Positions 4,642-55,845 of a DNA stretch of 64,000 bases are shown piece after piece. Location: contig CALITO010000003.1 in NCBI GenBank assembly GCA_938041455.1, positions 98,548 to 162,547 of the forward strand, written 5' to 3'. The position numbers and the translations under genes are program-made. Origin of the DNA: an uncultured bacterium (GTDB lineage: Bacteria > Armatimonadota > JACIXR01). Positions within the stretch are counted from its first letter, which is position 1. Each line of letters starts with the position of its first letter. Below the pieces are notes generated by a model, which made no database searches, was not told where the DNA came from, and saw only the letters and a list, made by a program, of their open reading frames with translations.

Positions 4642-5189
4642 GGACCCTCTTTCTCAAGGAAAGAGTTCTTTACGATGGTAGCCAGCTACATTCTCATTGG
4701 GCCTATAAGAATTATTCGCTCCTTGGTGATAGCGTAGTTGCCTTTATCGGTCCTTGTGAGGTAAAAAAAGAGGAAATGGTGGATTTGGAGGATTTTCTGA
4801 AAGGGGAGGTTATAAGAGCGGAGGAAATGTTGCATTTCATTTGTGAGCATTTTGGCTTAGATTTGAGGGAGACGGTCTACCGTCAGAGGTTGCTAATCGT
4901 CTGTGCTAAGGAAGCACTTGAAGAGAGAGGGTTAAGAATCCTGAGGGTAGGGGACGATTTGTTCTACAATCAAAGAAAGCTTTCCATATCCATAGCCACC
5001 ATTACTCCCCTCTCGGGTAAAATACATCTCGGAATAAATATAGACCCCCGGGGAGCGCCCTTGCCAGCAGTGGGCTTAAAGGAGATAGGAATAGAACCCG
5101 TTGGTTTTGGGGAGGAAGTAATGAGGCGGTATAAAGAGGAAATAGAAGGAATACATACCACTATGTATAAGGTGAAGGGGGTGCCTTGA
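4638..5189 (+). CDS. uncharacterised 183-aa protein embedded in the que operon
   Basis: ATG 4638 overlaps the queC stop (ATGA) and is preceded by AAGGAG. No motif recognisable by eye. Its position between queC and queE implies co-transcription. Confidence 0.5.
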   Translation: MRTLFLKERVLYDGSQLHSHWAYKNYSLLGDSVVAFIGPCEVKKEEMVDLEDFLKGEVIRAEEMLHFICEHFGLDLRETVYRQRLLIVCAKEALEERGLRILRVGDDLFYNQRKLSISIATITPLSGKIHLGINIDPRGAPLPAVGLKEIGIEPVGFGEEVMRRYKEEIEGIHTTMYKVKGVP

Positions 5190-5193
5190 TTCT

Positions 5194-5952: not shown

Positions 5953-5955
5953 GAT

Positions 5956-7047
5956 ATGTCCGTAGCGATGATAGGTATAAGCAAAGGAAGAGGAGAGTTA
6001 AAGGGAGAGGAGCGTTATATTAGGGCTATCGAGGAGGCAGGTGGTAAAGCTGTTATCCTTCCCCCCGGCAAGGGAGAGATAATACACAAATTAAATGGTT
6101 TGCTTTTGCCAGGGGGAGGAGATGTAAAGCCTTGTTTTTATGGGGAGGTTGAGCAAGGAAGCGAATCCATAGATGAGGAGAGGGATAAATGGGAGATAGA
6201 ACTTGCCCGCAGTTTCTTTAAGGAAGGAAAATCTATATTGGGAATATGCAGAGGGGCGCAGGTGTTGAACGTTTCCCTCGGGGGAACCCTCCATCAAGAT
6301 ATTAAAGGGCATAGGGAAGGGAGGCATTTGATCAAGATAGAAGAAGAGAGCTTGCTCTCTGATATCCTTGAGGGGATAAAGGAGATAGAGGTTGATTCCT
6401 CTCATCATCAAGCGGTAAAGGAAGTTGCTCCTTCTCTAAAGGAGGATGCCCGGAGCGGGGATGGCATTATAGAAGGGATAGAAGGAGAGGGTTTTATCCT
6501 CGGCGTTCAGTTCCATCCAGAAAGGATATATAAAGAGCAACCCATTATTTTCAATATATTTAAAAAATTCGTTCGAGCCTCTAAACGGGAGATATATACC
6601 TTAGGAACAAGCACGAGAAATTGGGAAGAGTTCATAGAAATCTTGAAGGCTTATGATGTGGAAGAAGTAGTGGATGTTAGAAGATTTCCTCTGAGCCGGT
6701 TGGAATGGTTCAGGAAGGAGGAACTTGAGAAGAGGTTGAGGGGAGAGGGGTTATTTTATATATGGATGGGCGAAGGATTGGGAGGCTATCGCTCACCTAG
6801 TTACCAAGCATACACTCGGACAGAGGAGTTCGGAGAAAGTTTGAAAAAATTATCTCAGCGAGCTTTGAGAAAGAGAGTGGTGATAATCTGTGCTGAGGCT
6901 TTACCCTGGCGATGCCATAGACGCTTCATAGCAAGTGCTATGGAGGAGAGGGGCTGGAAAGTTACCCATATAATAAGCAAAGGGAAAGAATGGTGCCCCA
7001 CTGAAAGGGTCCATCCCGAGGACGACCTCTTTTCGGAGGATGTTTAA
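5956..7047 (+). CDS. class I glutamine amidotransferase-like (peptidase C26 / gamma-glutamyl hydrolase-like) domain fused to a DUF488 domain
   Basis: The N-terminus carries the GICRGAQ nucleophile-elbow Cys and GVQFHPE His, matching the C26/GATase1 fold. The C-terminus carries IYTLGTS...VVDVRRFP...CAEALPWRCHRRFIA, typical of DUF488 (YeaO-like). Confidence 0.7.
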   Translation: MSVAMIGISKGRGELKGEERYIRAIEEAGGKAVILPPGKGEIIHKLNGLLLPGGGDVKPCFYGEVEQGSESIDEERDKWEIELARSFFKEGKSILGICRGAQVLNVSLGGTLHQDIKGHREGRHLIKIEEESLLSDILEGIKEIEVDSSHHQAVKEVAPSLKEDARSGDGIIEGIEGEGFILGVQFHPERIYKEQPIIFNIFKKFVRASKREIYTLGTSTRNWEEFIEILKAYDVEEVVDVRRFPLSRLEWFRKEELEKRLRGEGLFYIWMGEGLGGYRSPSYQAYTRTEEFGESLKKLSQRALRKRVVIICAEALPWRCHRRFIASAMEERGWKVTHIISKGKEWCPTERVHPEDDLFSEDV

Positions 7048-7056
7048 TGACTGAAA

Positions 7057-7980
7057 TTAACGGGGTGGGGAATAACCTTCCAAGGGTGCGAAGGCATCCA
7101 CCCAAGGTTGGAGCAGACGGCGCTTATCCTCCGGAAGGCGGAAGTAAGCCCTTACTCCTGCCGAAATTATAGGTTCAGCGAAGCTCGCTACTTGGGATTG
7201 CCTCTCAGGTGGTAGGGAGAGGAAGGCATTAACAGCGTTGGATAAGAAGACGGCGACATTCTGTATGATCCCGTCTCTTTGCTCAGGTGGTAGGGAAAAA
7301 AGACGGTCGAACAAGTTGCTCATCAGGTTCACTCGTTCCTCAGGTGACAACTGAAGAAATCTTTGATAGTTCTCCATAAATCGCTGGGGACCACTGGCTG
7401 GGGAAACTTCTTCTCCCTCTCCGCCAAATACTTGGGAGAAGTCATCCAGGTTTAAGGAAATGGTGGGCTTTGTTATGATATAAACTTTCTCCCAGTATAC
7501 CCCAGCGGAAGAACAGAGCCTGTCTATGATCCTTTCTATTCTTTGGTTTTTAAAACTGAGAGCATTCGTTGTGCCCTTTACATTAGGGTTCACCAGTATC
7601 CTAATTTTGCTCTCTTTTTCCAGTGCCTGTAAAGCATCGCTCAAAGGCGTTCCCTTATCAAAACTTATGGATACCAGGGGACCACCTAAGACCCGGGGCT
7701 TTTTAGTTTTTTGAGTAGAAACGAGGTAGCCCTCCTCCCACCTTGCAGAAACCTGGCTGGTGAGAGCATTCAAAACCTCCGATAAAGCCGCTTTATTAGC
7801 TTCGAGAGAAACCCTCTTCTCTATCGGTGATAGGACCAGTATTTTTACTCCCGCCTTTTCCTCTATCATTTTCACAGCGGAGTGGAAAGGCTCATCGATC
7901 ACCTTGAAGGTCAACAATGGGGAAGCGGCCAAACAAAGTCCTGTGATGCTAATGGTTACTAAAAGCAAATATCTTCTCAT
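7057..7980 (-). CDS. secreted protein with two STN-like (secretin/TonB N-terminal) domains
   Basis: Has a signal peptide and an AAGGAGGTG site 8 nt upstream of ATG 7980. The ISFDKGTPLSDALQALEKESKIRILVNP motif resembles an STN domain. Confidence 0.5.
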   Translation of the reverse strand: MRRYLLLVTISITGLCLAASPLLTFKVIDEPFHSAVKMIEEKAGVKILVLSPIEKRVSLEANKAALSEVLNALTSQVSARWEEGYLVSTQKTKKPRVLGGPLVSISFDKGTPLSDALQALEKESKIRILVNPNVKGTTNALSFKNQRIERIIDRLCSSAGVYWEKVYIITKPTISLNLDDFSQVFGGEGEEVSPASGPQRFMENYQRFLQLSPEERVNLMSNLFDRLFSLPPEQRDGIIQNVAVFLSNAVNAFLSLPPERQSQVASFAEPIISAGVRAYFRLPEDKRRLLQPWVDAFAPLEGYSPPR

Positions 7981-8019
7981 TTTTTAAACACCTCCTTTAC
8001 CGAGATTATTTTACCATTT

Positions 8020-10221
8020 CTATATAGTCTTGTGAAACTTCCTAAAAGAGGAGAGGAAGCATAATAAGGTAAGGGATAGAAGGGAGATATAGAATCCCAG
8101 TTTGAAGGCGAAAGGGCGGAAGAGGAAGAGAAGACGGTGTTTCCCCGCTGGCACAGGGACGCTTCTAAAGATGTAATATGGAATTATCGCTTTCTCTTCT
8201 CCGTCCAGAAATGCTCGCCAGCCAGGGTAATAGGTATCGGTGAATAAAAAATAGCCTTCCTTTTCCCCCTCGATCTCAAACTCCACCCTATTTGGTGAGT
8301 AAGCCAGAAGCTTGGAGCTTCCTTGGGCCTGGAAAAATTGGTCAACAAAACTGAACCTTAAAGGGTTTCCCAAATAGAGATAAAGCTTTGTTTCCCCATC
8401 CCTGAGCAGTTTCAGATGGGAGGCATCTATATAGAAAGGAGAAAGGACGAACTTCACCCCCAAAATATCAAGGTTTTCCTTTCTCACAGAATTCGGCAAA
8501 AGCATATTACCGTTCTCTAACGGGGCGGTATTCTTACCTTCAAGGTTATCCAAAAAACTCTTGTAGGGAAGCAAAAAAAGGCTGTCATAGCCTCCTACAT
8601 TAAAAAGTTGATACACCATAGAAGTATTGGGGGGAAAACATGCGAGAGGATATCTATAAAGAGACCAGCGAGGAGTTATCGCCAATAACCTATAAAAACT
8701 TCCTTTGAGTTGCTCTACAAAAGGAAGGGGAGGGAAGAGCTTTTCAGGGGGGGAGAAATAGAGATGGCTGGAAGCAGTGGGGAAAAGGTCAAGAAGGAGA
8801 AGGGGGAGAAGGAGATAGGGAAGGAGTTTTTTTCGGAAAACGATGAATAGATAAAGGAAGAGAGGCAGGAGGAATAGTTTGAGGAAATCCATATAAGGGA
8901 AGGTGGGGGATACATCTCTTAAGATGGTGAATGGTTCCTCTCTTGGGGCTAAGGAGAAGAGGAGGAAGGGGAAAAGTATTATTGGGAAGAAGGTGGAGTG
9001 GAGGAAGCGGCGGGAAAAGGGTGTGCGGAGCAGGGTATCGAAACCTATTCCTGCTCCCGCAGATAGGCAAAGGACAAAGACGCTGATAAGACGAGCGGGG
9101 GAACCAGTTTGGCTCCAAGCAGGGAAAAGGAAATAAAAAGGGATGTTCAAGGGAGTGCCGAGTAAAAGAAGAAAGGAAAGCAGGGAGATGATTAGGAGGG
9201 GAAAGGCAAATTTCCTTTCCCCTCGCAAGGTGAAAGGCAGACAAAAAAGAGGTAAGATACCGAGATAGAGTGCGTATTCTATATATTCTCCCCTGCCCCA
9301 GTAGTTTCCCTTTGCGGGATTGCCGAAGAAGTTAGGCAGGAACAACCCTATAAGCCGTTCCAGTGGCAAAGAGAGGGAGATATAAGCGTTGTAGGATTGC
9401 CAACTGGTGCTTTCGGCTCTATGAGCAAAGCGGAAAAACTCAAACAAAGGGAGAAGGGCGAGGGAGGACAAAAGGAGCCCCATACCAGCTCCGAAAAGTG
9501 GGACAAAAGAACTGCCCAAGTAAACCCTCTTTTCCCAAGGGAGACGAAGCAGGAGGTAGATTATCAGTAGCCAAAGTGTATAAAGGAGGAATTGAGGGTG
9601 TCCCCCAAGGGCACTTAAACTGAGGGAGATTGCGCAGGTAAGGAAGGAATGCCAAAGTTTTTTCTCCAAAGCAAGTTCTACCCCGATTAGCGCGAGGGGA
9701 GCCCAAACGAAGGAGTTAGCCACGGTGGGTAAGGGTAGCCAAGCAGTGACGAAACTGCTGAGCATATAAGCGAGGGAGGCGAAAAGCGAGGCGTAGGCAG
9801 AAACCTTTATTTTTCTAAGGAAAAGATAAAGCAGAAAGCCAGCCAAGAACAAGTGGAAGAAAGAGTTGAAACCGAGAAACCTCTTTCCCAGAAGCGCGGT
9901 TAACCAATTAAATGGGTAGAAGATAGCGGATTGTCCGTTGGCGTAAAAGGGGGTGCCACAAAACTGATAAGGGTTCCAGAGGGGTAAGAACCCCCCTCGC
10001 AGGCTCTCGGCGAGAAAATTGCGCCAGGGATAAAACTGAGCGATGCTATCCCAAAGGAGAGGGTTCCATTGTATACCTTCCCGAGGGGAGCCAATCTCTG
10101 CCCACGGTTGAAAATGGAAAAGCATATCCGCGGGAGAGAAAATGTAGCCCAGAAAAACTCTCACCATCAAAAAGAACGCTACGAGAAGTAATAGAAGAGG
10201 GGGAAAAAGTTTTTTTAGCAT
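8020..10221 (-). CDS. YfhO-family polytopic membrane protein (putative glycosyltransferase)
   Basis: Multi-TM N-terminus with WxxYxFxGxPF-type motifs and a large C-terminal periplasmic domain. The start is placed at the internal Met (MLKKLF, 10221) because the further 48 nt of the ORF-track frame overlap the intergenic repeat. Confidence 0.65.
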   Translation of the reverse strand: MLKKLFPPLLLLLVAFFLMVRVFLGYIFSPADMLFHFQPWAEIGSPREGIQWNPLLWDSIAQFYPWRNFLAESLRGGFLPLWNPYQFCGTPFYANGQSAIFYPFNWLTALLGKRFLGFNSFFHLFLAGFLLYLFLRKIKVSAYASLFASLAYMLSSFVTAWLPLPTVANSFVWAPLALIGVELALEKKLWHSFLTCAISLSLSALGGHPQFLLYTLWLLIIYLLLRLPWEKRVYLGSSFVPLFGAGMGLLLSSLALLPLFEFFRFAHRAESTSWQSYNAYISLSLPLERLIGLFLPNFFGNPAKGNYWGRGEYIEYALYLGILPLFCLPFTLRGERKFAFPLLIISLLSFLLLLGTPLNIPFYFLFPAWSQTGSPARLISVFVLCLSAGAGIGFDTLLRTPFSRRFLHSTFFPIILFPFLLFSLAPREEPFTILRDVSPTFPYMDFLKLFLLPLFLYLFIVFRKKLLPYLLLPLLLLDLFPTASSHLYFSPPEKLFPPLPFVEQLKGSFYRLLAITPRWSLYRYPLACFPPNTSMVYQLFNVGGYDSLFLLPYKSFLDNLEGKNTAPLENGNMLLPNSVRKENLDILGVKFVLSPFYIDASHLKLLRDGETKLYLYLGNPLRFSFVDQFFQAQGSSKLLAYSPNRVEFEIEGEKEGYFLFTDTYYPGWRAFLDGEEKAIIPYYIFRSVPVPAGKHRLLFLFRPFAFKLGFYISLLSLTLLCFLSSFRKFHKTI

Positions 10222-16955: not shown

Positions 16956-18125
16956 ATGAAGATTCTTTACTTTGATTGTTTTATCGGCGCCAGCGGGGAT
17001 ATGATTCTCTCAGCTCTCTTCGACCTCGGTGTTCCCCTGGGCGTAGTGCAAGAAGCGATAAATAAATTGGGTGTCGGGGAAGTTAAACTCTCAATAACTA
17101 AGGTAGAAAAACACCATATTTCTGCTCTCTCTCTGGATATCTTCGCCTCACCTCCTAAGAAGAGCTTCTCTTACGGAGAGATGGAAGAGATAGTGGGAGA
17201 AGCACCTCTGCCCGAGAAAATCAAGGGGGAATCCCTAACTATCCTGAAAAGGTTGGCATCAGCTGAGTCTTATGTCCACGGTGTGAAAATAGAAGATGTC
17301 CATTTTCACGAACTGGGGGGAGTGGATACGCTTGTTGACATCGTGGGGGCGGTCACCGCTATGGATTTCCTTGGAATAGAGGCAGTCTACTCCTCACCCC
17401 TCCCCTTGTCCTGTGGTTTTATAGAGGTAGCACACGGTTTTTTGCCCCTTCCTGCTCCTGCCACGATGAAACTACTGGAGGGAGTGCCAGTTCGCTCTCT
17501 TAACATAGAGGGAGAAACTCTCACTCCTACAGGAGCGGCAATAATCACCCATTATGCCAAGGAGTATCATCTTCCCGATATGAAGCTTTTGAAGGTAGGT
17601 TTGGGAGCAGGGAAGAAGGATTTCCCCCTTCCAAATATTCTCAGAGTTTTTCTGGGTGAAACGCCAGCTTCCTTTTCAAAAGAGCAGATCGTCCTTTTGG
17701 AGAGCAATATAGATGATATGCCTCCCAATCTGTATGAGCGTGTTATGGAAGAACTTTTTAAGGGAGGAGCATTGGATGTTTTCCTCCAACCGATAATTAT
17801 GAAAAGGAGTAGACCGGCGGTCTTACTCTCGGTCCTCTGTCATCAACAAGATGCAGATAAACTCGTAGGGATTATCTTCCGGGAAACAACAACCCTGGGG
17901 GTCAGATACAATCGCTTGGAGAGGGCGATTCTGGAGCGGGAGATAGTAAAGGTGAGGACTAAATGGGGCGAAGTGGAAATGAAGGTTGCGAAAAAGGGCG
18001 AGGAAATTCTTACCTATGCCCCGGAATTACGCTCCTGTGAAGAGATAGCGCGAAAGGAAGGCGTTCCTTTGAAAATGGTTATAGAGGAGGCGAGGAGGGC
18101 TTTTATGAAAGAACATAAATTATAA
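16956..18125 (+). CDS. larC: LarC-family (DUF111) nickel insertion protein
   Basis: Has the N-terminal MKILYFDCFIGASGDM signature and LarC/DUF111 length. Confidence 0.8.
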   Translation: MKILYFDCFIGASGDMILSALFDLGVPLGVVQEAINKLGVGEVKLSITKVEKHHISALSLDIFASPPKKSFSYGEMEEIVGEAPLPEKIKGESLTILKRLASAESYVHGVKIEDVHFHELGGVDTLVDIVGAVTAMDFLGIEAVYSSPLPLSCGFIEVAHGFLPLPAPATMKLLEGVPVRSLNIEGETLTPTGAAIITHYAKEYHLPDMKLLKVGLGAGKKDFPLPNILRVFLGETPASFSKEQIVLLESNIDDMPPNLYERVMEELFKGGALDVFLQPIIMKRSRPAVLLSVLCHQQDADKLVGIIFRETTTLGVRYNRLERAILEREIVKVRTKWGEVEMKVAKKGEEILTYAPELRSCEEIARKEGVPLKMVIEEARRAFMKEHKL

Positions 18126-32646: not shown

Positions 32647-33168
32647 ATGAGGGCTTTTCAATGGTCTGTTAAGGACTTAACGAGGGCGAGCTTCCTTGGA
32701 GCTTTAGGGCTCGCCCTTCCTTTTCTCTTCCATCTCGTGGGTGCGGGGAGGATATTCTTGCCTATGCATATCCCCATCCTACTGGGAGGTTTTTTACTTC
32801 CCCCAACTCTCGCCTGCTTTCTTGGTGCAGTGGTGCCGTTTCTCTCCTCACTTCTAACTGGTATGCCACCTATCCTTCCCACGATGCCAATTATGGTCCT
32901 TGAGCTCGCTGGGCTGGGGGGAATAACGGCAATTCTCTATCACAATCTGAAAGTCGGCGTATGGGGAAGTCTAATAGGGGGGATAGTGGGAGATAGGTTT
33001 GTCCTTGCTCTCGTAGTTCTAATCCTTGGGAGATGGTTGGAGGTCAAATCCCCCATCGTTTATGTAGGTGGAGCGGTGATGACGGGCATTCCGGGGATTA
33101 TTTTGCAACTCTTAATCATTCCCCCCATAATTTATTTTTATGAGAAGCGCAAAAGGGAAGGGGGATAA
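32647..33168 (+). CDS. putative ECF-transporter substrate-specific (S) component
   Basis: 173 aa with 5-6 TM helices, sitting immediately upstream of, and overlapping, the EcfT/EcfA fusion gene. Confidence 0.5.
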   Translation: MRAFQWSVKDLTRASFLGALGLALPFLFHLVGAGRIFLPMHIPILLGGFLLPPTLACFLGAVVPFLSSLLTGMPPILPTMPIMVLELAGLGGITAILYHNLKVGVWGSLIGGIVGDRFVLALVVLILGRWLEVKSPIVYVGGAVMTGIPGIILQLLIIPPIIYFYEKRKREGG

Positions 33169-34429
33169 ACTCTGGATTATATTCCCTTCCTTTCTTATCC
33201 TTCCTTTTCTAATCCCTTGGATTAAGGGGAAATTCTTGCTTTCCCTTCTGCTTTTCTCCTTCTTTCTCCTTTTCTGCTACCGCATAAAATGGGAATGGTT
33301 TAAAAAAAGGTTTCTGCCTTTCCTTATATCTATAACTACGCTGACCTGCTTCTCACTACTTCTTGGGGGATCCAGAGATAAGATAATAGAACTCGACGCC
33401 CGTTGTGCAGGCGTTTTTCTTCTCTTTTCCCTTGTCACGAGCCAAATTACTCCCTCCCAGCTTTTGAGGATTTTCTCAAAAGAAGGAAAGCCCTCTTCGA
33501 TTGCCTTATTTTTCTATCTTACTTTCCGTTATTTTTCTCTCCTCTTAGAAGAAGGACAAAGGATGGTTCGTTCTGCTCAAGCGAGGGGAGGAGAGATGAA
33601 GAAGATAGTTTGGAGGTCCTTTAAACTCTTCGTAAATTATATTCTGAGAATTTTGAGGAGGAGCGAGGTGGTAGCGATGGCTATAGAAGCGAGAGGCTGG
33701 GAGGGGACGGAGACGCCCCCTCTATCTCAAGATGAGATAAGGTTGGAGGATGTTTCATTTACCTATCCCGATGGTAAAGAGGCGCTGAAGAATATAAACT
33801 TGAGGATAGGAAAGGGAGAAAGGGTGGCGATTTTGGGGAGAAATGGGGCGGGGAAATCGACCCTCCTTTGGGTTATAGGGGGATTTCTTAAGCCCAGGGG
33901 GAAGGTGAATGTCTTCGGAATAGAGGTGAAGAAAGAGAATCTTCCCAAATTGAGGAAAATAGTGGGCATAGTGTTTGAAGACCCCGAGGACCAGCTTTTA
34001 ATGCCCTCGCTTATTGAGGATGTTATGTTCGGTCTATTGAATATTGGTTATAGAAGGGGTGAAGCGGAGAGGTTGGCGAGGGAGGAATTGAAGAGGTTTG
34101 GTTTAGAAGGGTATGAAGAAAGCCATCCCCACGATTTATCACAGGGTGAGAAGAGGAGGGCATCTTTGGCAGGTGTAATGGTGATGAGACCACAACTTCT
34201 ACTTTTGGATGAGCCGAGCGCCAATTTGGATGCCCGAGGGCGCAAGGAATTGGTGGATATTTTAAAGGGACTGGATGCAACCTTTCTCCTTGCCACACAC
34301 GATTTCCAACTGGTGAGGGCGCTCTGCCCGAGGGCGGTTGTCCTCCTTGAAGGCGAAGTTGTTTACGATGGCGCAATGAAAAGTTTAGTAGAACAAAGGC
34401 AACTCTTAGAGGGCTGGGGGATATTATAG
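33140..34429 (+). CDS. ECF/CbiQO-type transporter: T (transmembrane) component fused to an ABC ATPase
   Basis: The N-terminal membrane half carries the two EcfT coupling-helix Ala-Arg-Gly motifs (SAQARGGE, AIEARGWEG). The C-terminal half has Walker A GRNGAGKST, the LSQGEKRR signature and Walker B LLLDEPSANLD. Confidence 0.7.
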   Translation: MRSAKGKGDKLWIIFPSFLILPFLIPWIKGKFLLSLLLFSFFLLFCYRIKWEWFKKRFLPFLISITTLTCFSLLLGGSRDKIIELDARCAGVFLLFSLVTSQITPSQLLRIFSKEGKPSSIALFFYLTFRYFSLLLEEGQRMVRSAQARGGEMKKIVWRSFKLFVNYILRILRRSEVVAMAIEARGWEGTETPPLSQDEIRLEDVSFTYPDGKEALKNINLRIGKGERVAILGRNGAGKSTLLWVIGGFLKPRGKVNVFGIEVKKENLPKLRKIVGIVFEDPEDQLLMPSLIEDVMFGLLNIGYRRGEAERLAREELKRFGLEGYEESHPHDLSQGEKRRASLAGVMVMRPQLLLLDEPSANLDARGRKELVDILKGLDATFLLATHDFQLVRALCPRAVVLLEGEVVYDGAMKSLVEQRQLLEGWGIL

Positions 34430-34908: not shown

Positions 34909-36324
34909 TTAGAGGATGAAGCGGGAGAGGTCCTCACTCTGGAGGATGTCCCCTAACTGCCGCTGGACGAAACCAGCATCTACTATTACTGTTTGCCCTT
35001 TAAGGGAGGGCGCCTGGAAGGATATGTCCTCTAAAAGCCTTTCCATAACCGTGTGGAGACGGCGAGCTCCTATGTCCTCCGTGCGCTCGTTCACTAAGCG
35101 AGCTATCTTCGCTATCTCAGCAACTCCCTCTGGAGTGAACTGCAAATCCACCCCCTCGGTAGCCAAGAGTGCCTGATACTGCTTGCAGAGGGCATTCTCA
35201 GGCTCGGTTAGTATTCGCCGGAAGTCTTCTTCGCTAAGGGGGTCAAGTTCAACTCTTATCGGGAGGCGCCCTTGCAACTCGGGAATGAGGTCAGAAGGAC
35301 GGGCGGAGTGGAATGCACCAGCCGCTATGAAGAGTATGTGGTCGGTCTTGACCGGTCCATATTTAGTCTGCACCGTGGAACCCTCTATTATGGGGAGAAG
35401 GTCCCTTTGCACTCCTTCCCTTGAAACATCGGGACCAACTCCCCCCGATTTACCCACGATTTTATCTATCTCGTCTATGAAGACAACACCGAGGTTCTCT
35501 GCCCTCTCCTTCGCCTCTCTCTTAACCTCGTCCATATCTATGAGTTTCTCCGCTTCCTCCGCGGCGAGGATATCCTTCGCCTCTCCCAGGGTCACCCTCC
35601 TTCTCTTTTTCTGCTTAGGAAATATACTCCCGAAGAGTTCTTGGATATCCAGTCCCATCTCTTCCACTCCTGCTGGGGTGAACACTTCCACAGCAGGGAT
35701 GCCCCTGCTATCTTCCACCTCTATCTCCACTATCTCTTTATCCATTTCCCCGCTTTCTATCTTCGCCCTTGCTTCCTCCCTCTGCCGATGGGCTACTGCC
35801 ACCCGATAGTTGAACTCCTCTTCACTCATCGTCGGCTCTTCACTTTTTCTTCCAAAGAGCGCTTGGAAGGGGTAGGGTAGGGGGGCGGAGCGTTGAGGGA
35901 GAGGATAGAGAATGTCAAGGAGTCGTTCAATCGCGAGAACCTTCGCCTTCTCCCTCACTTCGGCGAGTTTTTCCTGCCTCACCATTTGAACTGCTACATT
36001 CATCAAATCCCTTATTATGGAATCTACATCTCGCCCTACATAGCCCACTTCTGTGAACTTAGTTGCTTCCACTTTAACAAAGGGGGCGGAGACGATTCTC
36101 GCCATTCTCCTTGCTATCTCCGTCTTGCCCACACCTGTGGGACCTATCATTAGGATGTTCTTGGGTATCACTTCCTCTTTTAGGTTAGGAGGAAGGAATT
36201 TTCTTCTATAGCGATTACGGAGGGCAACGGCGACAGCCTTTTTCGCCCTATATTGTCCCACTATGTATTTGTTCAACTCTTCCACTATTTTCTGGGGAGT
36301 TAAATAAGCCATCGGGTCAATCAT
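34909..36324 (-). CDS. hslU: ATP-dependent protease ATPase subunit HslU
   Basis: Has Walker [18 protein letters not shown] and the HslU intermediate domain. Confidence 0.95.
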
Positions 36325-36326
36325 AT

Positions 36327-36872
36327 TTAATCACTTCCCTCTATGGTTTCAATATAAAGCTGGTCATTTGTGTAGATACAAATTGAGGAAGCAATTTTTA
36401 TCGCTTCCTCCGCTATTTTTTGGGCATCCAAATCAGTGTATTTGATTAATGCCTTAGCGGCTGCCAGGGCGTAGGGACCACCTGAGCCTATTCCAACGAC
36501 ATCGTCATCAGGTTCTATAACATCGCCGGTTCCCGAGACCACGAGTAGTTGTTTCCCATCGGAGACGACGAGGAGAGCTTCCAACTGGCGAAGGGCGCGC
36601 TCCGTCCGCCATTCCTTCGCCAGTTCTACGCAAGCTCGTAAGAGATTGCCCTGGTGCTCTTGTAACTTCCCTTCAAGGCGGTCAAATAGGGCAAGAGCAT
36701 CGGCAGCTGCCCCAGCGAAGCCAGCTATTACCCTCCCATTATACATCCTCCTCACCTTGCGGGCAGAGTTCTTCAATATAGTGTTCTGGAAAGTTATCTG
36801 CCCGTCTCCCGCAATAGCGACCTTCCCATATCTTTTTACCGCTAATATCGTTGTGCTTTTCATACTCCTCAT
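36327..36872 (-). CDS. hslV: ATP-dependent protease subunit HslV
   Basis: N-terminal [19 protein letters not shown] with a Thr nucleophile after Met removal. Confidence 0.9.
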
Positions 36873-37792
36873 CCTCTCGGATGTGCCTTTTTATAAACTT
36901 CTTTCAATTTGTCAACCGTAAGATGGGTGTAGATCTGGGTGGAAGCGAGACTGGAATGACCCAGAAGTTCCTGAACCGCCCGCAGGTCCGCTCCTCTTTC
37001 CAAAAGATGGGTCGCAAACGAGTGGCGAAGGGTGTGAGGGGAAGCATGAAGAGCTCCCCCTGTGGCGAGTTTGCTAACAATTTTATGAATGCCCCGAATG
37101 GATAATTTACCGCCAAATCTGTTGAGGAAGAGAGCATCACAGGGCTCCCTCTCTAAGATGGGGCGGGAAGAAAGAAGATAATCCCTCAAAGCTTTCCTCG
37201 CTTTCTCTCCTAAGAAGACGAGCCTTTCCTTGTCCCTTTTTCCCTTGATTTTTAACTCCTCGCTATTTTCTTGGAAGTCATTCAATTGGAGGGAGGCAAG
37301 CTCAGCTACTCTCAGGCCAGTGGAGTAAAGGAGCTCTATTAGAGCCCTATTGCGGATTCCCAACGCATCCTCTTTAGTAGAGGATAACATCGTTTCTATG
37401 TCCTTGATTTTGAGGAAGTGGGGGAGCCCTCTTCTGTGGCGAGGGGAGGAGAGGACGAGGAGGGGATTGCTCTTGAGCTTGCCCGATTTCACCAGATATT
37501 TATAAAATGAGCGGAGTGCGGATAACTTCCTTAAAATGCTCGTCCTGCTGTATTTATTCTCCTGAAGAGCCCCCAAGAAATCCCTTAGAAGGTAGATCTC
37601 CACCTTCCCCCATTCAAGGATGTTTCTCTTCTCGGCGAAGCGGGAGAACTGGAGGAGGTCCTCGCTGTAGGATTTAAGGGTGTGGGGCGAATAACCCCGC
37701 ACCTCCTTAAGATAGTTAATGAACTCCTCTATCTCCTCAATCATTCTCAAAATAATTTTAACCGATGGGGAGAAAAAATCAAAACCCGCCAT
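36869..37792 (-). CDS. xerC: tyrosine recombinase XerC/XerD family
   Basis: Carries [38 protein letters not shown] with the catalytic Tyr. Sits in the xerC-hslV-hslU operon. The true start may be the internal Met at 37744. Confidence 0.85.
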
Positions 37793-48345: not shown

Positions 48346-51300
48346 TTACTTTGGCACAAGCTTTATCCTCAATACCTCGCCAAAGCGGGCTCTTCCCTCC
48401 GCTTCCATATAGAGCTTCAGTTCTTTTTGCTTATCAAGCGCTGGTAGTGTAAAGATAGGAATCTCCACATCCCTCAGGCGAGGGCAATTTCGGGGGAGGG
48501 GTATTTTCAAGTTAAGCCCTTCTATCACCAGGAACACTCCCCCTTTTCTCCCTCTCGCGTTCTTGGGAGCCACCCATTCAGCAATTCCCGTGTTGCCTAG
48601 CGAAACATACATCTCCACAGGCTTGCCTTTTTTCACTTCAACTATTCCATCCTCAATGAGCTCCACCCACTTCCCCTCTTTGTCCTTTATCTTAACCCAG
48701 TTGAACTCCCCATTGAGATATTTAGGGGGGTTAGAACCATTATAAGGGGTATTGCCCACTGCTATCAGGGGGGTATTGAGGGAATTTGTTCCGCTTCCTT
48801 CTGTCCTTATCCCCACTACCTTGCCTTCTTTTCTTGCCTCTACATATTTTGCCTTGTTATCATTGTAAACCCCTTCGTAATTTGTGGTGTGTAGATCTCT
48901 ATCTATGGTTATCCAAACCTGGGGGGTTAGTTGCTTGCGTGGTGTAGAGATTAAATTTGAATATTTTTGGAAGACGAGGGCGGCGGGGCGGGGGGTATTG
49001 TCGGGGTTGATTATGCCGAAGTCGCTCTTTTCATCACAGCGGTAGCCACCTGGGAACCACCAACAAGCGGAGCCGTTAGCGCCCGAGTCCAGGAGCATCT
49101 CGTAGAAACTGGCGTAGTAATCGGCCTGCTTCTCCATATTTTCAGGCGTTATATGGGGGTGGATATTGTAGCCGAACTCCGCCCAGAAAACGGGTTTCCC
49201 CTCGCTTGCGAAGCGGGCGTAAGCGGTAGTTAGCCCCGCTTCTTCGGGTTTCAAGCCATAACCCTCGGGGGAGAGGAAATCAAAATGCTTAGCTTGTCCT
49301 ATCATATCATAGGCAAACCATCCGCTCCAAGAGGGTTGGGAAGCAGCACGATTGCTTATCAAGTGGTTAGGGTCTAACTCCCTTATCTTTCTCACTACTT
49401 TGGCTGTAGCTTTGCTGGCGAAATCGTCTAAGAACCTACCATAGGCACAAGCCATTCTCAACCAGGGACCATCCTGGCGCAATTGTTGATCCGATGGACC
49501 AGTTACCTTTCCATTCTCGTCCCTCGGTATGGGATAGCCCCAATCTTTTTCCGCGTTCTCGATACTTCCGTATCTATCTTTCACCCATTTTTCCCACTCT
49601 CCATCCCATCTCCTCCTCTCGTTGTATCCACCCCAATGGATCTCCCAGGCGATGTCGTAGGCGAAAATCGTGCTGTTGCCTTTGAATCTACCGTTTTTGA
49701 TTAAGTCGGTGAAGAGACCTTCATCCTTATAAAGGGGATGAGCCCCATTGATGAAGAGGTTTACCTTCAAGCCGTGCCTCTTGGCTCTCAATAAAAAATC
49801 GTTTACTTGTGGCACCTGTTGTCTTGAGATGAGTTGGACACTCACCATAGTTGCCCCTAACTTTCTTAATAGAGCGAGGTTTCGCTCTATTATCAAGGGG
49901 TCGTAGAGCTCGGGACTTATCCACCCCTTCCAGAATTCTGATATCTCTTGCCCCGCTATATAAGAAGGCCAGTAATTCATCCCGTGAGGATACCACTTAT
50001 TACCTTTAAGATAAAAATCACCGTCCTTTACATAAACGAATTCTTCCTTTGGGTCATTCGGTGTCTCTTGGACACTTACCTCCTGCTCTATAACATCTAC
50101 CAATTTATCTCCTTCCCAAAGTTCCGTTCTGCCTACATAAATCCCCGCTTCTTCAGCGAGGACTTCCCAGGAGATGATAGAATCGCCCATTGGGGAGAGG
50201 GTTAAATCCTCCTCTTTAATCCAGACCTCTTTCCCTTCTCGGATAATTCTCATCCTCAACTTTGCTCTCCTCTCTTCGGAGGATATGTTGACTACCTGTG
50301 CTCCAACTCTTGCCACATCGCCCACGAAATAATGGAAGAAGTCAGAGCCTGCTTTGACGAGGAATAATCCATACTCCATTTTCTCTATGACTCTTTCAAT
50401 AAGGGGGAGGAAGAAATTCCAATGTCTTTCTAAAAAATTTATATCCTTTATCCCCAGCCAGGCGAAGATTGAGCCAAGATAGGGTGGGGAAAAGTTAACA
50501 TAGAGGGAAAGGGGGAAGCCGCGAGGGTTTCCCTCCTTATCAAAGGCTTCCAATACAGGGATGAAGCGTCCCGTTCTCTCTCCCGAGAAACCCAATCCCC
50601 GCATCCTAAGTATGGGGGAGAGGAAGGAAAATTCCCCTTCTATCCGGGCATCGGAGGGGAGAAAAACTTGAGAAGGAAAAGCTTTTATGAGGCTCATATT
50701 TTGGAGTTCATAGTATTTATACCAAGGGGAAAGGGTTTCCAATGTAGGGAGGGAGAGGTCGGGCTGGGGAGGATAATCCCTCTTTGCGGTGCCGATCCTC
50801 GCTATCCAAATCTTGTGTGGACCAGGAGATAAGTTAGTATTATGCCCTAACGCCAATCCTATGGAAAGACTTTCGGCATTTTGGGGATTAAAGCGGTCGC
50901 CTGGTCCACCTCTTCCCTTGCTCGGGTTATCAGGCCAATATAGGAATTTTTCAGGAACGAGAGCATAGTATTGCCAGGAGATGGAGAGGGGGACTGTAGC
51001 TATCCAGCGGGAGCCGTCTTTTTCCCGCCATTCCAAAAGCATTGCCTGAGTGTTGGCATCGCCCTTAGCCCAAAAACAGGTGAGATTCTGTCCGTTTGGG
51101 AAGGGATCTTGTAGGGGAGGGGAGAGAAGCGTATCCCAACCGGTGAGGTTAGAAACCTCGAATTCCAAAGAGTGGATACCTTCTTCTGGTCCCTCGGGAA
51201 CAACTCTATATCTTGTAGGGGAGGCCAGGTTATTTGAAGCTCTTATCCACTTCTCCATTTCTTCCTTCTGGAAATCTACAATGGTGCGTTCCACTGGGGT

Positions 51301-52239
51301 CCTCGCTATCTCCTCTTGGAGTTTCTCCCACCTTTCCTGCTCTAATCTAACCGAACTCGTGAAGATTGCCCCACCCAAGCATAGGAGATTCCCTCCTCCC
51401 TCAAGGAAGGAAAGGAGATTAGCCTTAGCGGAGAGGGGATAGAAACTTGCCTCAGGAAGAACAAGGAGATAAAAAGTCTCATTGCTAAAGGAAGGGCTTT
51501 TCAGCGTTTGCTCCCTAACAATCTCCACCTTTCTCCCCAAAGTCTGTAGAGCAGATGCTAATTTCTCGGTTAATTCCTGGGGATAACCCTCTTCGTCACT
51601 TTGGAAAACGGCTATTTTTTCGCCCCTTGGTTTAGTTAACCCCATAGGTGTTCCCTGCCAACTGACCGCAGAAAAGGTGGCGCTTAACCCAGAGCTTCTC
51701 AAAGCTATCTTGCCCCCTTTCACTACTTGGCTGGTAGGTGGAAAGGAGAACTGTATCTGGTAGAGGATTTTATTGCTGGATGGCTCCCTTATCTCTCCTC
51801 TTATTCCCTTGGGGTCAAAGGTCAAGATGAGGAGGTAATCCCTACCATATTCCCAAGCAAACTGTTCCTCCCCTCTTTTCACAGGCAAGTTATCCTCTAT
51901 TTCTGCTCTCCAGATTCCCGCTCGCATTTCTGCTAACTCACCATAGCGCTCTCCGTTTGGTCCCTCAACCAATATCAACTGCCAATAATTAGAGGAAGAG
52001 AGGTAAAGCATAATACCCGCTATTGCCCACCCGCCTGCGGTGGTGCGTGATCGAATCCTCAATAGGGATTTGAATTCTCCTCCCTCGTAGTAGGGGACTT
52101 GGGAAGGAATAGCGAGGGAGTTAACTTTCCCATCGCTCGTTAGTTTCTCATTTTCTACCTGGAAATTTCCTTCAACAATGTTCCACTGGGAGGCGAAAGA
52201 AAAAGCGGAGATCAAAATGGCTACAAGAAAACAGCGCAC
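48346..52239 (-). CDS. very large secreted protein (1297 aa) with a TIM-barrel glycoside-hydrolase-like region
   Basis: Has a signal peptide. An internal region (YPHGMNYWPSY...LGATMVSVQLI...NLFINGAHP) resembles GH5/GH42-type (beta/alpha)8 hydrolases. Confidence 0.45.
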   Translation of the reverse strand: MRCFLVAILISAFSFASQWNIVEGNFQVENEKLTSDGKVNSLAIPSQVPYYEGGEFKSLLRIRSRTTAGGWAIAGIMLYLSSSNYWQLILVEGPNGERYGELAEMRAGIWRAEIEDNLPVKRGEEQFAWEYGRDYLLILTFDPKGIRGEIREPSSNKILYQIQFSFPPTSQVVKGGKIALRSSGLSATFSAVSWQGTPMGLTKPRGEKIAVFQSDEEGYPQELTEKLASALQTLGRKVEIVREQTLKSPSFSNETFYLLVLPEASFYPLSAKANLLSFLEGGGNLLCLGGAIFTSSVRLEQERWEKLQEEIARTPVERTIVDFQKEEMEKWIRASNNLASPTRYRVVPEGPEEGIHSLEFEVSNLTGWDTLLSPPLQDPFPNGQNLTCFWAKGDANTQAMLLEWREKDGSRWIATVPLSISWQYYALVPEKFLYWPDNPSKGRGGPGDRFNPQNAESLSIGLALGHNTNLSPGPHKIWIARIGTAKRDYPPQPDLSLPTLETLSPWYKYYELQNMSLIKAFPSQVFLPSDARIEGEFSFLSPILRMRGLGFSGERTGRFIPVLEAFDKEGNPRGFPLSLYVNFSPPYLGSIFAWLGIKDINFLERHWNFFLPLIERVIEKMEYGLFLVKAGSDFFHYFVGDVARVGAQVVNISSEERRAKLRMRIIREGKEVWIKEEDLTLSPMGDSIISWEVLAEEAGIYVGRTELWEGDKLVDVIEQEVSVQETPNDPKEEFVYVKDGDFYLKGNKWYPHGMNYWPSYIAGQEISEFWKGWISPELYDPLIIERNLALLRKLGATMVSVQLISRQQVPQVNDFLLRAKRHGLKVNLFINGAHPLYKDEGLFTDLIKNGRFKGNSTIFAYDIAWEIHWGGYNERRRWDGEWEKWVKDRYGSIENAEKDWGYPIPRDENGKVTGPSDQQLRQDGPWLRMACAYGRFLDDFASKATAKVVRKIRELDPNHLISNRAASQPSWSGWFAYDMIGQAKHFDFLSPEGYGLKPEEAGLTTAYARFASEGKPVFWAEFGYNIHPHITPENMEKQADYYASFYEMLLDSGANGSACWWFPGGYRCDEKSDFGIINPDNTPRPAALVFQKYSNLISTPRKQLTPQVWITIDRDLHTTNYEGVYNDNKAKYVEARKEGKVVGIRTEGSGTNSLNTPLIAVGNTPYNGSNPPKYLNGEFNWVKIKDKEGKWVELIEDGIVEVKKGKPVEMYVSLGNTGIAEWVAPKNARGRKGGVFLVIEGLNLKIPLPRNCPRLRDVEIPIFTLPALDKQKELKLYMEAEGRARFGEVLRIKLVPK

Positions 52240-52248
52240 TTTTTCACC

Positions 52249-53532
52249 TCATTCCTTTGAGATGCCCGTGAAGTTGAAGTTGGAGAGTCTTACTGCTGGG
52301 ACGAGAGAATATTCGCCTCTTTTAAGTTCCCTGCTCAATAGTAAGTCTCCTGAAAATGCTTTTAAAAGGTTCTGAGTAAAGCGGAGGTTACGGAGGGGAT
52401 ATTTTATCTTTCCCTTTTCTATAAAGAAAGTGCCATCCCTCGTCAATCCTGTAAAGACGAGTTGTTTGGGATGCACGATGTTGGTATAATGGAGCCGAGT
52501 AACGAGGATGCCCCTGTCAAGGGTGGCTATCAAATCCTCAAGGGAGTATTCGCCGGGATAAAGAAACATATCGGAAGGGAAAGGGGCGTGGCGAGTGGAA
52601 TGTCCCGTTGATTCTTTACCTTCTTTATGAGCGGTGAAGGAATCGTAGACAACCCCTTTTGCCACGCCTCTTTCAATCAAGACAACCCTTTGCTTGCCGA
52701 CACCTTCCCAATCGAATGGGAAAGGGAGTTTAGCATTCCGTGCATCGTCAACAAGGGTTATCTTTTCGTCAAACAATTTCTCTCCCAATTTACCCTCTAA
52801 AAAACTCCTTCCCTCTTGAAGGGCTTTGGCATTAAAGCCGAACCATCCGAAAAACATCATTATCTCATCCACCGCATAGGGTAGTAGAACGACATCGTAT
52901 TCTCCAGGCTCAATCTCCTTGGGATTCTGTGAAGCAAGGGCTCTTTCTATCGCTTCTTCTGCCAACTCGGCGGGGTTGATTTCTCGCCAATCTGTAGTGA
53001 GACAAGCAGAGAAACCGCTGCCCTCAGCCTTTATGGCTACTAAACGAAGCGTGAAGCTACTCATCATCCCACAGACATCTATTCCAAGGGAATTGAGAAC
53101 GCAGATATTTCCTTGGGAGGCGGAGAAGGCACCTGATAGAAAAACACCCCTTTTCTCTGCCACCGCTATTGCTGAACCTATTATCTCACCTGCTTCAAGT
53201 GGGGAGGGAGGCTCCACATAAGGAGGTAGGAAGGGCAAGGGAGTGGGCTTGGGGAGGGAAACGAACTCGGGGTCGGGCGGGGAAAGCTCGGCCACGGTTT
53301 CCGCTCTCCCTATCATTTCCCTCAATGTTTTTTCCTCCGCTACATTTGTTGATGCCTCTCCTATCTTTTTATCTTTTATAACCTTAACATTGGCAAAGAA
53401 GTTCTTGTCTTGAACCGCTTGGTGCACCTTGTTGCGAGTGAAGCGGATAAGATAGTGGGAATAATCCGAGATGTTAACCTGTGCTTCTTCTATATTCTCC
53501 AGTATGAATTTCCCTATATCCCTTGCTTTCAT
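52249..53532 (-). CDS. pmbA: TldD/PmbA-family metallopeptidase (PmbA/TldE-like)
   Basis: Family-typical length and conserved blocks. 4-nt overlap with tldD. Confidence 0.75.
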   Translation of the reverse strand: MKARDIGKFILENIEEAQVNISDYSHYLIRFTRNKVHQAVQDKNFFANVKVIKDKKIGEASTNVAEEKTLREMIGRAETVAELSPPDPEFVSLPKPTPLPFLPPYVEPPSPLEAGEIIGSAIAVAEKRGVFLSGAFSASQGNICVLNSLGIDVCGMMSSFTLRLVAIKAEGSGFSACLTTDWREINPAELAEEAIERALASQNPKEIEPGEYDVVLLPYAVDEIMMFFGWFGFNAKALQEGRSFLEGKLGEKLFDEKITLVDDARNAKLPFPFDWEGVGKQRVVLIERGVAKGVVYDSFTAHKEGKESTGHSTRHAPFPSDMFLYPGEYSLEDLIATLDRGILVTRLHYTNIVHPKQLVFTGLTRDGTFFIEKGKIKYPLRNLRFTQNLLKAFSGDLLLSRELKRGEYSLVPAVRLSNFNFTGISKE

Positions 53533-54980
53533 CTCTTCATCACTCCAATCCTTACTCTTTGGAAACGGGCATAGGGTACTTGATGTCCAACGAACATTGC
53601 CTGGGGAGGTTCTCCTTTCCCGCAGTTCGGCACTCCCAAAAGGAAGAGGGTGGATTCATCGGTGACAGCATCCAACGAGTTCCAGAATAGAGGGGTAATG
53701 CCCGTGTAAGTGGGGTTTTTAACCATTCCCTTTATCTCTCCATTCTCTATGAGCCATCCTATTTCGCCTGCGAATTGGAAGTTCAACCTTTTGTCATCTA
53801 TTGACCAAGAGGAATATTCCTCTATCAGAAGTCCCGCCTTTGTCTCTTGGACGAGTTCGTCCAAGGAGAAATCTCCTGGTTCAAGGTTTATGTTTGTCAT
53901 TCTTATGAGGGGCAAGTTGTTATAGCCATCGGCGCGAGCGCATCCTCCCGATTTTATTCCCAACTTATAAGCTACTTCTCTGGAGGTTAGATAATTTTTG
54001 AATATTCCTTCCTTGACAAGTTCTATCTTCTGCGCTCTAACACCTTCGTCATCGAACTCGAAATGTCCGAGTGCCTTCTCCAGGGTAGCATCCGCTACAA
54101 GATTGACGAGGGGACTGCCATAGCGGAAATTGCCAAGTTTATCTCGGGTCAAAAAAGTATCCCCCGCATAGGAGGTTTCATAGCCGAAAACCCTATCCGC
54201 TTCAGAGGGATGTCCACAGGATTCGTGGATTTGGAGACCGAGCATTGATTTGCCGATTATGAGCGTCCTTTCATCCGATGGGCATAGGGGAGCATTGAGG
54301 AGCGCTTCCGCTTCCTTAGCAATCCTTTCTGCCTGGGAGGGAAGGTCGAGGCTTCTCACGAACTCCCACCCCATCTGGGCATAGTTGCCCCCCATAGCAG
54401 GGTAGGAACGTTCTTGGGTTTCTTCCCCTTCTACGGCAGTGGCGCTTATCCCACCGCCACATATTGTTATTATTTGCTCTATATCGGCGCCTTCACTTGA
54501 GAGGAAGAACTTCTCCTCTCTAAAAGAGTTAAGGGTGCTTTCCCGAACTTTTATCTTGGGCGAGATGTTCAGCAAGCGGTCGCATTCAAGAAGGAACTCC
54601 ACTTTATCGGGAAGGGGTATATCAAAGGGGTTTTCTTTATAGGGGAATTTAAAACTTCCTTCACCAACTTCCTCTTCCGACAAATTAACCTCCATATTTC
54701 CCGCTTTGTGAGCGCTTCTCGCCATCTGGATAGCCATCTTTGCCGTTTCTCTCACTCCCTCAGGGGTTAGTTGGTTAGTAGCGGCGAAGCCCAGCGCCTT
54801 GTTCCAGATCACTCTTATGCCTAATCCTGCCTCTTCCCGAGATTCTATTCTCTCCGGTCTCCCATTCTTCACATATACTTCTTCTGATTTTCGTCTTACT
54901 ATTCTTGCATCGGCAAAGTTGGCACCCTCTTCCAACGCCCTCTCGATTGCTTTCCTCAGAAGTTCTTGCATATTAGACAA
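53529..54980 (-). CDS. tldD: TldD-family metallopeptidase
   Basis: HESCGHPSEADRV (HExxxH) metal site. TldD length. Confidence 0.85.
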   Translation of the reverse strand: MSNMQELLRKAIERALEEGANFADARIVRRKSEEVYVKNGRPERIESREEAGLGIRVIWNKALGFAATNQLTPEGVRETAKMAIQMARSAHKAGNMEVNLSEEEVGEGSFKFPYKENPFDIPLPDKVEFLLECDRLLNISPKIKVRESTLNSFREEKFFLSSEGADIEQIITICGGGISATAVEGEETQERSYPAMGGNYAQMGWEFVRSLDLPSQAERIAKEAEALLNAPLCPSDERTLIIGKSMLGLQIHESCGHPSEADRVFGYETSYAGDTFLTRDKLGNFRYGSPLVNLVADATLEKALGHFEFDDEGVRAQKIELVKEGIFKNYLTSREVAYKLGIKSGGCARADGYNNLPLIRMTNINLEPGDFSLDELVQETKAGLLIEEYSSWSIDDKRLNFQFAGEIGWLIENGEIKGMVKNPTYTGITPLFWNSLDAVTDESTLFLLGVPNCGKGEPPQAMFVGHQVPYARFQRVRIGVMKR

Positions 54981-55845
54981 ACCTCCCTTTTACACCAGTT
55001 CGCTTCTCTTCCTCTATGCGCTTTCTTCCCAACTCAAAGAAAGGCTTTGCGAAATCGGTTGCCCAAGTGCGCTCCTCAAAAGTGCGTTGTTCGAGGGTTT
55101 TAAGGAAACCCTCTATCTCCTTAAAGTAAGAACCGTAGATATGATAGGAATCGGAGATATCCACATATCTTCCTACGAATACCTCCTTCCCAATTTTAAC
55201 GCTTATTCTCTCCGCTATCAATCGTTGCAGGTCGGTAAGGGCGAAGATGTTCATAAAAGCTGCCTTAAAGGCGTCCCTGCTTCGCCAATGGGTGTTCATA
55301 TTGAGGTAGAATTTGCCCTCTTCTTCTGTGAGCCTGCACCAAATACGCTGAAGGCAGGGAGGGTCGTCGGTCTTAGGGTCCATACCCGGCTTCCAGGTTA
55401 TTGCTTGGGCACGCCGAGAGTAGGGAACTTGGGAAAGTTTTTCAATTATATAGGCTATTTGGTCTATTTTCTCTCCCTCGGTTGAGTAGGAGAAGAGGCG
55501 CTCGTGATAAGTGTAGGTCCATTTTCCTTCCTCGGGGGCTATCCAATGGTCGTGGACGCCTTCCACCACCTCAAGGCGATATATCTCCAAATCTTCCAAA
55601 CCACCGGGGAAGCAACGATGGATGCGGGGTTCGGCAAGTGGTTGCTCTATAATCATGATCATAGTGCAGTCCCGACTAGGTGGATCCTCCGGTTTATCAT
55701 ATTCAGTCCTTATCGCTATCCCTTCCCTCCAGGTGGCAAGAACGGAGTTCTCCCATACCTCAGGCAGGGTCCTACCTCTTACTAAAAGGACGGGAATATC
55801 AATCCTCACGCTATCCATACCTCCCATATAGATGCTTTTTAACAT
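54973..55845 (-). CDS. divergent thymidylate synthase (ThyA)-fold protein
   Basis: Read-off alignment to E. coli ThyA across the catalytic core: IDQI...SRR...W, PPC (Cys nucleophile), WRSRD (cf. QRSCD) and MNIFA (cf. FNIAS). The His after the catalytic Cys is replaced by Leu, and the N-terminal half is divergent. Confidence 0.6.
   Translation of the reverse strand: MLKSIYMGGMDSVRIDIPVLLVRGRTLPEVWENSVLATWREGIAIRTEYDKPEDPPSRDCTMIMIIEQPLAEPRIHRCFPGGLEDLEIYRLEVVEGVHDHWIAPEEGKWTYTYHERLFSYSTEGEKIDQIAYIIEKLSQVPYSRRAQAITWKPGMDPKTDDPPCLQRIWCRLTEEEGKFYLNMNTHWRSRDAFKAAFMNIFALTDLQRLIAERISVKIGKEVFVGRYVDISDSYHIYGSYFKEIEGFLKTLEQRTFEERTWATDFAKPFFELGRKRIEEEKRTGVKGRFV

Follow-up and report, generated by a model that had tools for sequence, protein, structure and literature searches.

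A ThyA-like protein encoded next to tldD-pmbA in an uncultured Armatimonadota bacterium belongs to the archaeal-type thymidylate synthase branch and probably makes dTMP

A 64,000-nucleotide stretch of contig CALITO010000003.1 from an uncultured Armatimonadota bacterium, hereafter the window, carries on its minus strand a gene for a ThyA-like protein, followed by tldD and pmbA. We found that this gene is a typical, well-conserved representative of the archaeal-type branch of the thymidylate synthase (ThyA) family. Judged from its sequence, the protein is probably the enzyme with which the window bacterium converts deoxyuridylate (dUMP) to thymidylate (dTMP). Its location next to tldD-pmbA most likely reflects incidental, lineage-specific tight packing of genes and not a shared function.

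Results

Family assignment of the ThyA-like protein

The ThyA-like gene is a real open reading frame (ORF), whose maximal extent is 54973..55845 on the minus strand (290 aa). The first-pass annotation of the window had taken the gene at this full length. The minus-strand ORF exists as described, but its likely start is GTG 55809 rather than 55845, which most likely gives a protein of 278 aa (54973..55809, minus strand). This start was preferred because the nearest relatives (88-90% identity) are 278 aa long, with a first codon that aligns with Val13 of the 290-aa maximal ORF, and because a GGGAGG Shine-Dalgarno-like site, read from the sequence at 55820..55825 on the minus strand, lies 10 nt 5′ of the GTG. 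In two related loci, L005 and L008, a TTG start preceded by GGAGG is found at the position aligned with GTG 55809. Neither the 278-aa nor the 290-aa form of the protein had an identical database entry in an exact-sequence look-up.

The ThyA motifs that had been quoted for the ORF were all present in its translation (KIDQI, YSRRAQ, DDPPCLQ, WRSRD and FMNIFA). Pfam PF00303 matched residues 99-249 with E=1.1e-14 and 54.7 bits, against a gathering cut-off of 24.3. When an AlphaFold2 model of the protein (pLDDT 83.6) was compared with known structures, the matches were solely to members of the ThyA superfamily, and the closest were flavin-dependent and hydroxymethylating homologues. The best curated NCBIfam model was TIGR03283 (thy_syn_methano), with E=5e-38 and 130.6 bits; residues 21-243 of the protein aligned with positions 2-200 of the 201 in the model. 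This end-to-end match, compared with E=2e-10 for the canonical model TIGR03284, supports the earlier proposal of an archaeal-type (MJ0757-like) thymidylate synthase. Ten diverse family members all scored 89-142 bits on TIGR03283. Like that of the window protein, these scores lie below the equivalog cut-off of the model, indicating that the proteins form a sister clade of the methanogen type and are not part of the methanogen family itself.

The N-terminal half had been described as unlike bacterial ThyA, and this held at the sequence level, where canonical ThyA in PDB sequence searches aligned only from about residue 97. The distinctive N-terminal region is common to the methanogen-type family, with position 2 of TIGR03283 falling at residue 21 of the protein. 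The window protein resembles the methanogen (MJ0757) type in its N-terminal half, its Cys nucleophile and its RR, RSxD and N motifs. In contrast, the clade of the window protein is about 75 aa longer, owing to a conserved C-terminal helical extension, and is mainly bacterial, with archaeal metagenome-assembled genomes (MAGs) such as those of Methanomethylicia also represented. Canonical ThyA (PF00303; TIGR03284; E. coli, L. casei and B. subtilis structures) is more distant, with 17-22% identity, a sequence match limited to the C-terminal ~150 residues and a different C-terminus. UniProt/HAMAP have an 'archaeal-type ThyA subfamily' for putative thymidylate synthases of unknown cosubstrate, a description derived from partial reactions of the Methanothermobacter enzyme.

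Distribution and genomic context of the family

Of the 8,000 candidates examined in a word-indexed search, at least 7,485 proteins scored at E<=1e-3. The 120 top-scoring relatives were 66-90% identical to the window protein and 268-311 aa long, and their source-given names were 'thymidylate synthase' except for one 'hypothetical protein'. An exhaustive search of 50%-identity representatives gave 247 clusters at E<=1e-30, and one 43%-identical representative came from a Methanomethylicia archaeon. Relatives are encoded in 415 stretches of species-representative genomes, and members with 55-70% identity are spread over at least 8 phyla. The 80 top-scoring of these 415 (55-84% identity) came from Omnitrophota, Firestonebacteria, Elusimicrobia, Aminicenantes, Aerophobetes, Planctomycetota, Actinomycetota and Paceibacterota, together with a few MAGs labelled archaeal. 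When cultured carriers were sought by cluster look-up of 20 representatives, only MAG or metagenome entries were found. Such a very wide occurrence in cellular organisms favours a housekeeping dTMP synthase.

Copies of the gene also occur in viral DNA. Ten IMG/VR viral contigs (L090-L099, up to 341 kb) carry a family member with 42-58% identity and the same residue signature, and ORFs nearby resemble, by eye only, SbcC/SbcD-type, DnaB-type, primase-type and DNA-methylase-type proteins. Cultured phage genomes yielded only canonical ThyA at <30% identity and no close homologue.

Clustering of the flanking ORFs across all loci showed that the neighbourhoods are lineage-specific. In Omnitrophota a metallophosphoesterase lies directly upstream, and a HIT protein and a dGTPase-like HD protein lie downstream. 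In Planctomycetota the gene is preceded by riboflavin synthase and followed by NrdR and an ATP-cone protein, another group of loci has a bifunctional-nuclease domain protein upstream, and in three loci from Elusimicrobia a dUTPase gene (Dut) is found ~3 kb upstream. Inteins were present in several family members. In P0124 and P0127 the intein directly precedes the catalytic Cys, which provides the +1 residue (DDPP-intein-CLQRIW), whereas in P0140 it splits the KWTY/TYH motif; P0141 and P0254 have Hint or intein domains as well. Hint, LAGLIDADG and Intein_splicing domains were confirmed in the intein-bearing members. Essential proteins of replication and nucleotide metabolism are typical hosts of inteins, which cluster at their catalytic sites. 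In addition, the 451-aa protein P0135 is a fusion in which an RNase H-like domain (RVT_3/RNase_H) at the N-terminus precedes the archaeal-type ThyA domain. The inteins at the catalytic Cys and in KWTY/TYH, the neighbours that act in dNTP metabolism (NrdR, Dut and the dGTPase-like protein) and the RNase H fusion together support a housekeeping role in the supply of DNA precursors.

Fusion partners and neighbours that could identify the cofactor (DHFR, ThyX) were also sought. No DHFR or ThyX neighbours were present in the flanks of the related loci, and 10 over-long family members had no DHFR domain; the extra length was made up of inteins or lacked any recognisable domain. Searches of the 64-kb window and of the regions flanking the related loci turned up no thyX, canonical thyA or folA; these stretches cover far less than 1% of each genome, and the result was given no weight.

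Two further neighbourhoods were recorded as side observations. In L006 (4757-7142) and L007 (977-3362), which belong to one lineage, genes for a glycosyltransferase, PTPS, GTP cyclohydrolase I and a short-chain dehydrogenase lie 3-5 kb upstream and make up a pterin-synthesis set. In L088 and L089, contigs of Methanomethylicia MAGs, a PfkB-family kinase gene is found directly upstream of the archaeal copy with a 7-nt gap (7034-8741). PfkB-like ORFs also occur 1-5 kb upstream in ~15 bacterial loci, including those of Omnitrophota, and a link of this recurrent neighbour to nucleoside salvage is possible.

Active site and substrate

We mapped the active site by profile alignment (hhalign) to E. 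coli ThyA, using the numbering of the 278-aa protein, and tallied the aligned positions over 58 family members of 38-70% identity. The catalytic Cys in a P-C motif, the phosphate-binding RR and the R-S-x-D motif (R176-S177-R178-D179) were all present, and were kept in 55-58 of the 58 members. The nucleophile C146 of the E. coli enzyme corresponds to C152 (57/58), which is encoded at 55356..55354 on the minus strand. Y94 corresponds to Y101 (57/58), the phosphate-binding R126′ and R127′ to R132 (55/58) and R133 (57/58), and R166 and S167 to R176 and S177, both of which were invariant (58/58). The pterin-contacting D169 is found as D179 (56/58), N177 as N187 (57/58), H207 as H223 (57/58) and Y209 as Y225 (55/58).

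Twelve residues lie within 6 Å of dUMP C5 in E. coli ThyA, and exactly these 12 are listed in a 2026 study that also gives empirical rules for them (PMC13326640). According to these rules, Asn at N177 goes with dUMP (uracil) and Asp with dCMP (cytosine), D169N is the signature of flavin-dependent 5-hydroxy-dCMP synthases, and position 143 is Leu in methylating enzymes and Asp or Glu in hydroxymethylating enzymes (PMC13326640). By the N177 and D169 rules, the window protein is predicted to bind dUMP and not to be a 5-hydroxy-dCMP synthase. T4 dCMP hydroxymethylase (gp42) and MilA have the cytosine-selecting Asp at N177, where the window protein has Asn; they share with it an acidic residue at the L143 position (D149 in the window protein). 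The phage 5-hydroxy-dCMP synthase AfhB (9iqc) has Asn at D169, where the window protein, like 56 of the 58 members, has Asp.

Several observations weigh against dTMP synthesis by this protein or set it apart from canonical ThyA. Its TIGR03283 score is below the equivalog cut-off of 174.55, and its score with canonical TIGR03284 (40.1 bits) is below the corresponding cut-off of 108.35. Only five of the 12 residues around C5 are retained, with W80H, A142D, L143D, H147L, Q165W, C168R and G173A changed. These positions differ consistently across the family: position 147 is Leu in 53 of 58 members, 165 is W, M, F or I, 168 is R or N, and 173 is Ala in 55 of 58. The Leu that follows the catalytic Cys in place of His had been pointed out before; the observation was correct, but the residue is a trait of the whole family. 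W80, L143, H147, Q165 and G173, which are H, D, L, W and A in the window protein, are residues of the canonical folate site. L172K, F176M and the new C-terminal helices show that the canonical contacts to the para-aminobenzoyl-glutamate (pABA-Glu) tail and the C-terminal lid are not conserved. The folate-closing C-terminal segment of ThyA is instead replaced by the conserved helical extension, in which R242, F244, T248, W249 and F258 are invariant among close members. The acidic D149 is the reported correlate of hydroxymethylating, not methylating, homologues. Finally, archaeal ThyA enzymes have been neither purified nor identified and shown to make dTMP; their biochemistry is little known, and tetrahydromethanopterin or folate as their carrier has only been inferred (PMC9931769, PMC9012536). 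A literature search found no biochemical characterisation of MJ0757, of archaeal or archaeal-type ThyA, or of the Methanothermobacter thymidylate synthase.

The Asp at the L143 position could mean that the protein is a C5-hydroxymethylase of dUMP (or UMP) or another C5-modifying enzyme, in which the methylene intermediate is captured by water and not reduced; the published rule ties this residue to hydroxymethylating enzymes (PMC13326640). We gave the L143 rule little weight because it was derived from phage enzymes of the canonical branch and because the position varies in a family that is otherwise highly conserved. Among the 58 members it is D in 29, H in 12 and E in 7, the six commonest residues (D/H/E/Y/S/N) do not include Leu, and the viral locus L090 has Phe, which argues against a catalytic role. 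The Asn at N177 and the Asp at D169 also mean that the signatures of dCMP hydroxymethylases and 5-hydroxy-dCMP synthases are absent. The family of the window protein is carried not by phage hypermodification clusters but by very many cellular genomes across many phyla. To our knowledge, DNA containing 5-hydroxymethyluracil is not known from these cellular carrier phyla. No kinase or glycosyltransferase genes for hypermodification were among the recurrent neighbours, and the lack of close homologues in cultured phages points in the same direction. A C5-hydroxymethylase is therefore improbable.

The altered folate site could also be explained by a true dTMP synthase that uses a donor other than methylene-tetrahydrofolate, such as a methanopterin-like or other modified pterin or another cosubstrate. 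Among curated families the methanogen type is the nearest, and its carrier is presumed not to be folate (PMC9012536, PMC9931769); the loss of the pABA-Glu-tail and lid contacts (L172K, F176M) with retention of the pterin-contacting D169 would fit such a donor. The genes for PTPS, GTP cyclohydrolase I and the short-chain dehydrogenase upstream of the ThyA-like gene in one lineage point the same way, but this neighbourhood is limited to that single lineage, and no methanopterin-pathway genes were seen in the window. Moreover, most of the carrier phyla, such as Omnitrophota, Planctomycetota, Actinomycetota and Elusimicrobia, are ordinary folate users. We consider a donor of this kind unlikely, though less so than hydroxymethylation.

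The junction with tldD and the downstream genes

The ThyA-like gene (thy) is followed on the same strand by tldD (53529..54971), which encodes a metalloprotease of 480 aa, counted from a conserved ATG, with three PmbA_TldD Pfam domains and an HExxxH motif (HESCGH) in its translation. Next comes the pmbA/tldE paralogue (52249..53532, minus strand), with three PmbA_TldD domains and no HExxxH. Its start overlaps the tldD stop by 4 nt (ATGA, 53532..53529), as previously reported. In these features the pair is like the known TldD/TldE (PmbA) heterodimeric metalloprotease. A 1297-aa ORF (48346..52239, minus strand) begins 9 nt after pmbA and lies in the block that is syntenic among close relatives; it is adjacent and 76-80% identical in L005 and L008, and its L005 orthologue gave a weak match to Glyco_hydro_42. 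The three-gene unit proposed before is therefore present in the order thy-tldD-pmbA but extends to this fourth ORF.

The first-pass annotation also had the thy stop overlapping the tldD start by 8 nt. This overlap was not upheld: it depends on TTG 54980, which is merely the first possible start of the maximal tldD ORF (53529..54980, minus strand) and is TTC in L005, L008 and L009. The start of tldD is probably ATG 54971, which leaves a 1-nt gap after the thy stop (TAAtATG). In L005, L008 and the window the ATG lies 1 nt past the stop (TAA/TGA-T-ATG), whereas in L009 the stop and the ATG share 1 nt (TGATG). The tldD gene as called in L005 encodes 480 aa, the same length as the window ORF from ATG 54971.

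In all four genomes AAAGGGAGG (GGGAGG) is located 10 nt 5′ of the tldD ATG (9 nt in L009). In the window this Shine-Dalgarno-like site occupies 54982..54987 on the minus strand, within the last codons of thy, which encode K-G-R-F-V. The surrounding sequence AAAGGGAGGTTyGTy-stop is kept in the window, L005, L008 and L009 (window 54976-54990, minus strand), and the KGRFV tail of the ThyA-like protein is confined to this lineage. Since the stretch doubles as the ribosome-binding site of tldD, the thy coding sequence appears to be constrained by a downstream translation signal.

Link between the ThyA-like gene and TldD/PmbA

We searched 87 related loci by tblastn with the window TldD and PmbA. Adjacency to tldD-pmbA was found in three of them, L005, L008 and L009, whose ThyA-like proteins share 81-88% identity with that of the window; the flanks of the remaining 84 contained neither tldD nor pmbA. 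The gene order is thus kept in only one close lineage and is not conserved more widely. Loci at ~70% identity have other neighbours: CsgG and DoxX genes are nearby in L001 (a 3.3-Mb contig), the ThyA-like stop overlaps the start of a Memo-family gene in L002, and DUF6485 and HAD genes are downstream in L006. Tight spacing is common in the window: of its 39 pairs of neighbouring ORFs on the same strand, 23 overlap or are separated by ≤10 nt, irrespective of what they encode. Scans for promoters and terminators near the cluster performed no better than on shuffled sequence.

These results bear on the idea of a functional module made up of the ThyA-like protein and TldD/TldE, for example a pathway to a nucleoside or peptide natural product, with peptide processing by TldD/E and pyrimidine modification by the ThyA-like enzyme. 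TldD/E are maturation proteases in some peptide pathways, MilA is a ThyA homologue that serves antibiotic synthesis, and four genomes (the window, L005, L008 and L009) keep both the gene order and the placement of the tldD ribosome-binding site within the final codons of thy. These four genomes, however, are one close lineage (at least 81% identity), and no TldD/TldE system with a ThyA homologue is known. The neighbourhood includes no precursor peptide, transporter or other biosynthetic genes; the neighbours are a PD40 protein, a DnaJ-like protein and a large protein with weak similarity to GH42. The ThyA-like protein is also 66-73% identical to copies in non-syntenic genomes, indicating that it has not diverged for a new role. 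A functional module was rejected on the tblastn result and is very improbable. The thy-tldD-pmbA block, with the 1297-aa ORF, is a real unit in one small lineage and is probably co-transcribed and translationally coupled, while the adjacency itself is most likely incidental.

Other genes in the window

Several loci away from the ThyA-like gene were also recorded. At 3961-7047 on the plus strand, a tight cluster encodes QueC, DUF366, a small radical-SAM protein (QueE-like) and a GATase(C26)/DUF488 fusion, in which DUF366 occupies the place expected for QueD in the 7-deazaguanine (preQ0) pathway. A LarC-type nickel insertion gene is found at 16956-18125, an ECF transporter S component adjoining a fused CbiQ/ABC protein at 32647-34429, and HslUV with a XerC-like recombinase at 34909-37792. 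DUF1559/prepilin-type proteins are also present.

Discussion

The ThyA-like protein of the window is probably a dTMP synthase. In the mechanism that we propose, dUMP would be held by the conserved Arg/Ser phosphate cage and the uracil-selecting Asn, and Cys152 would act as the nucleophile that attacks C6. A one-carbon unit from a methylene-pterin carrier would then be added at C5 and reduced to the methyl group, giving dTMP for DNA synthesis. Of this scheme, our analysis shows the ThyA fold and the conservation of the nucleotide-site residues, and we infer dTMP as the product and folate or another pterin as the carrier. At the level of expression, thy and tldD are probably co-transcribed, and translation of tldD probably re-initiates from the Shine-Dalgarno sequence inside the end of thy. 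The enzyme and the TldD/PmbA protease pair would have no functional partnership.

The departure of the pocket from that of canonical ThyA leaves some room for another reading, in which the clade is not a conventional methylene-tetrahydrofolate-dependent dTMP synthase and uses a different cosubstrate or chemistry. This reading draws on the seven of 12 changed residues around C5, the Asp at the 'water-excluding' L143 position, the new C-terminal helical lid and the structural proximity to flavin-dependent and hydroxymethylating homologues. It has an outside chance of being correct; if it is, many anaerobic phyla would make thymidylate by an undescribed variant route.

The family is already labelled thymidylate synthase in databases, and what remains new lies in its chemistry and altered C5 pocket, not in the window locus. 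As our analysis shows, the methanogen type has a sister clade that is widespread in bacteria and in which the pocket around C5 is consistently altered. The biochemistry of one soluble bacterial member could settle how dTMP is synthesised in the carriers of this gene and, by extension, in many archaea.

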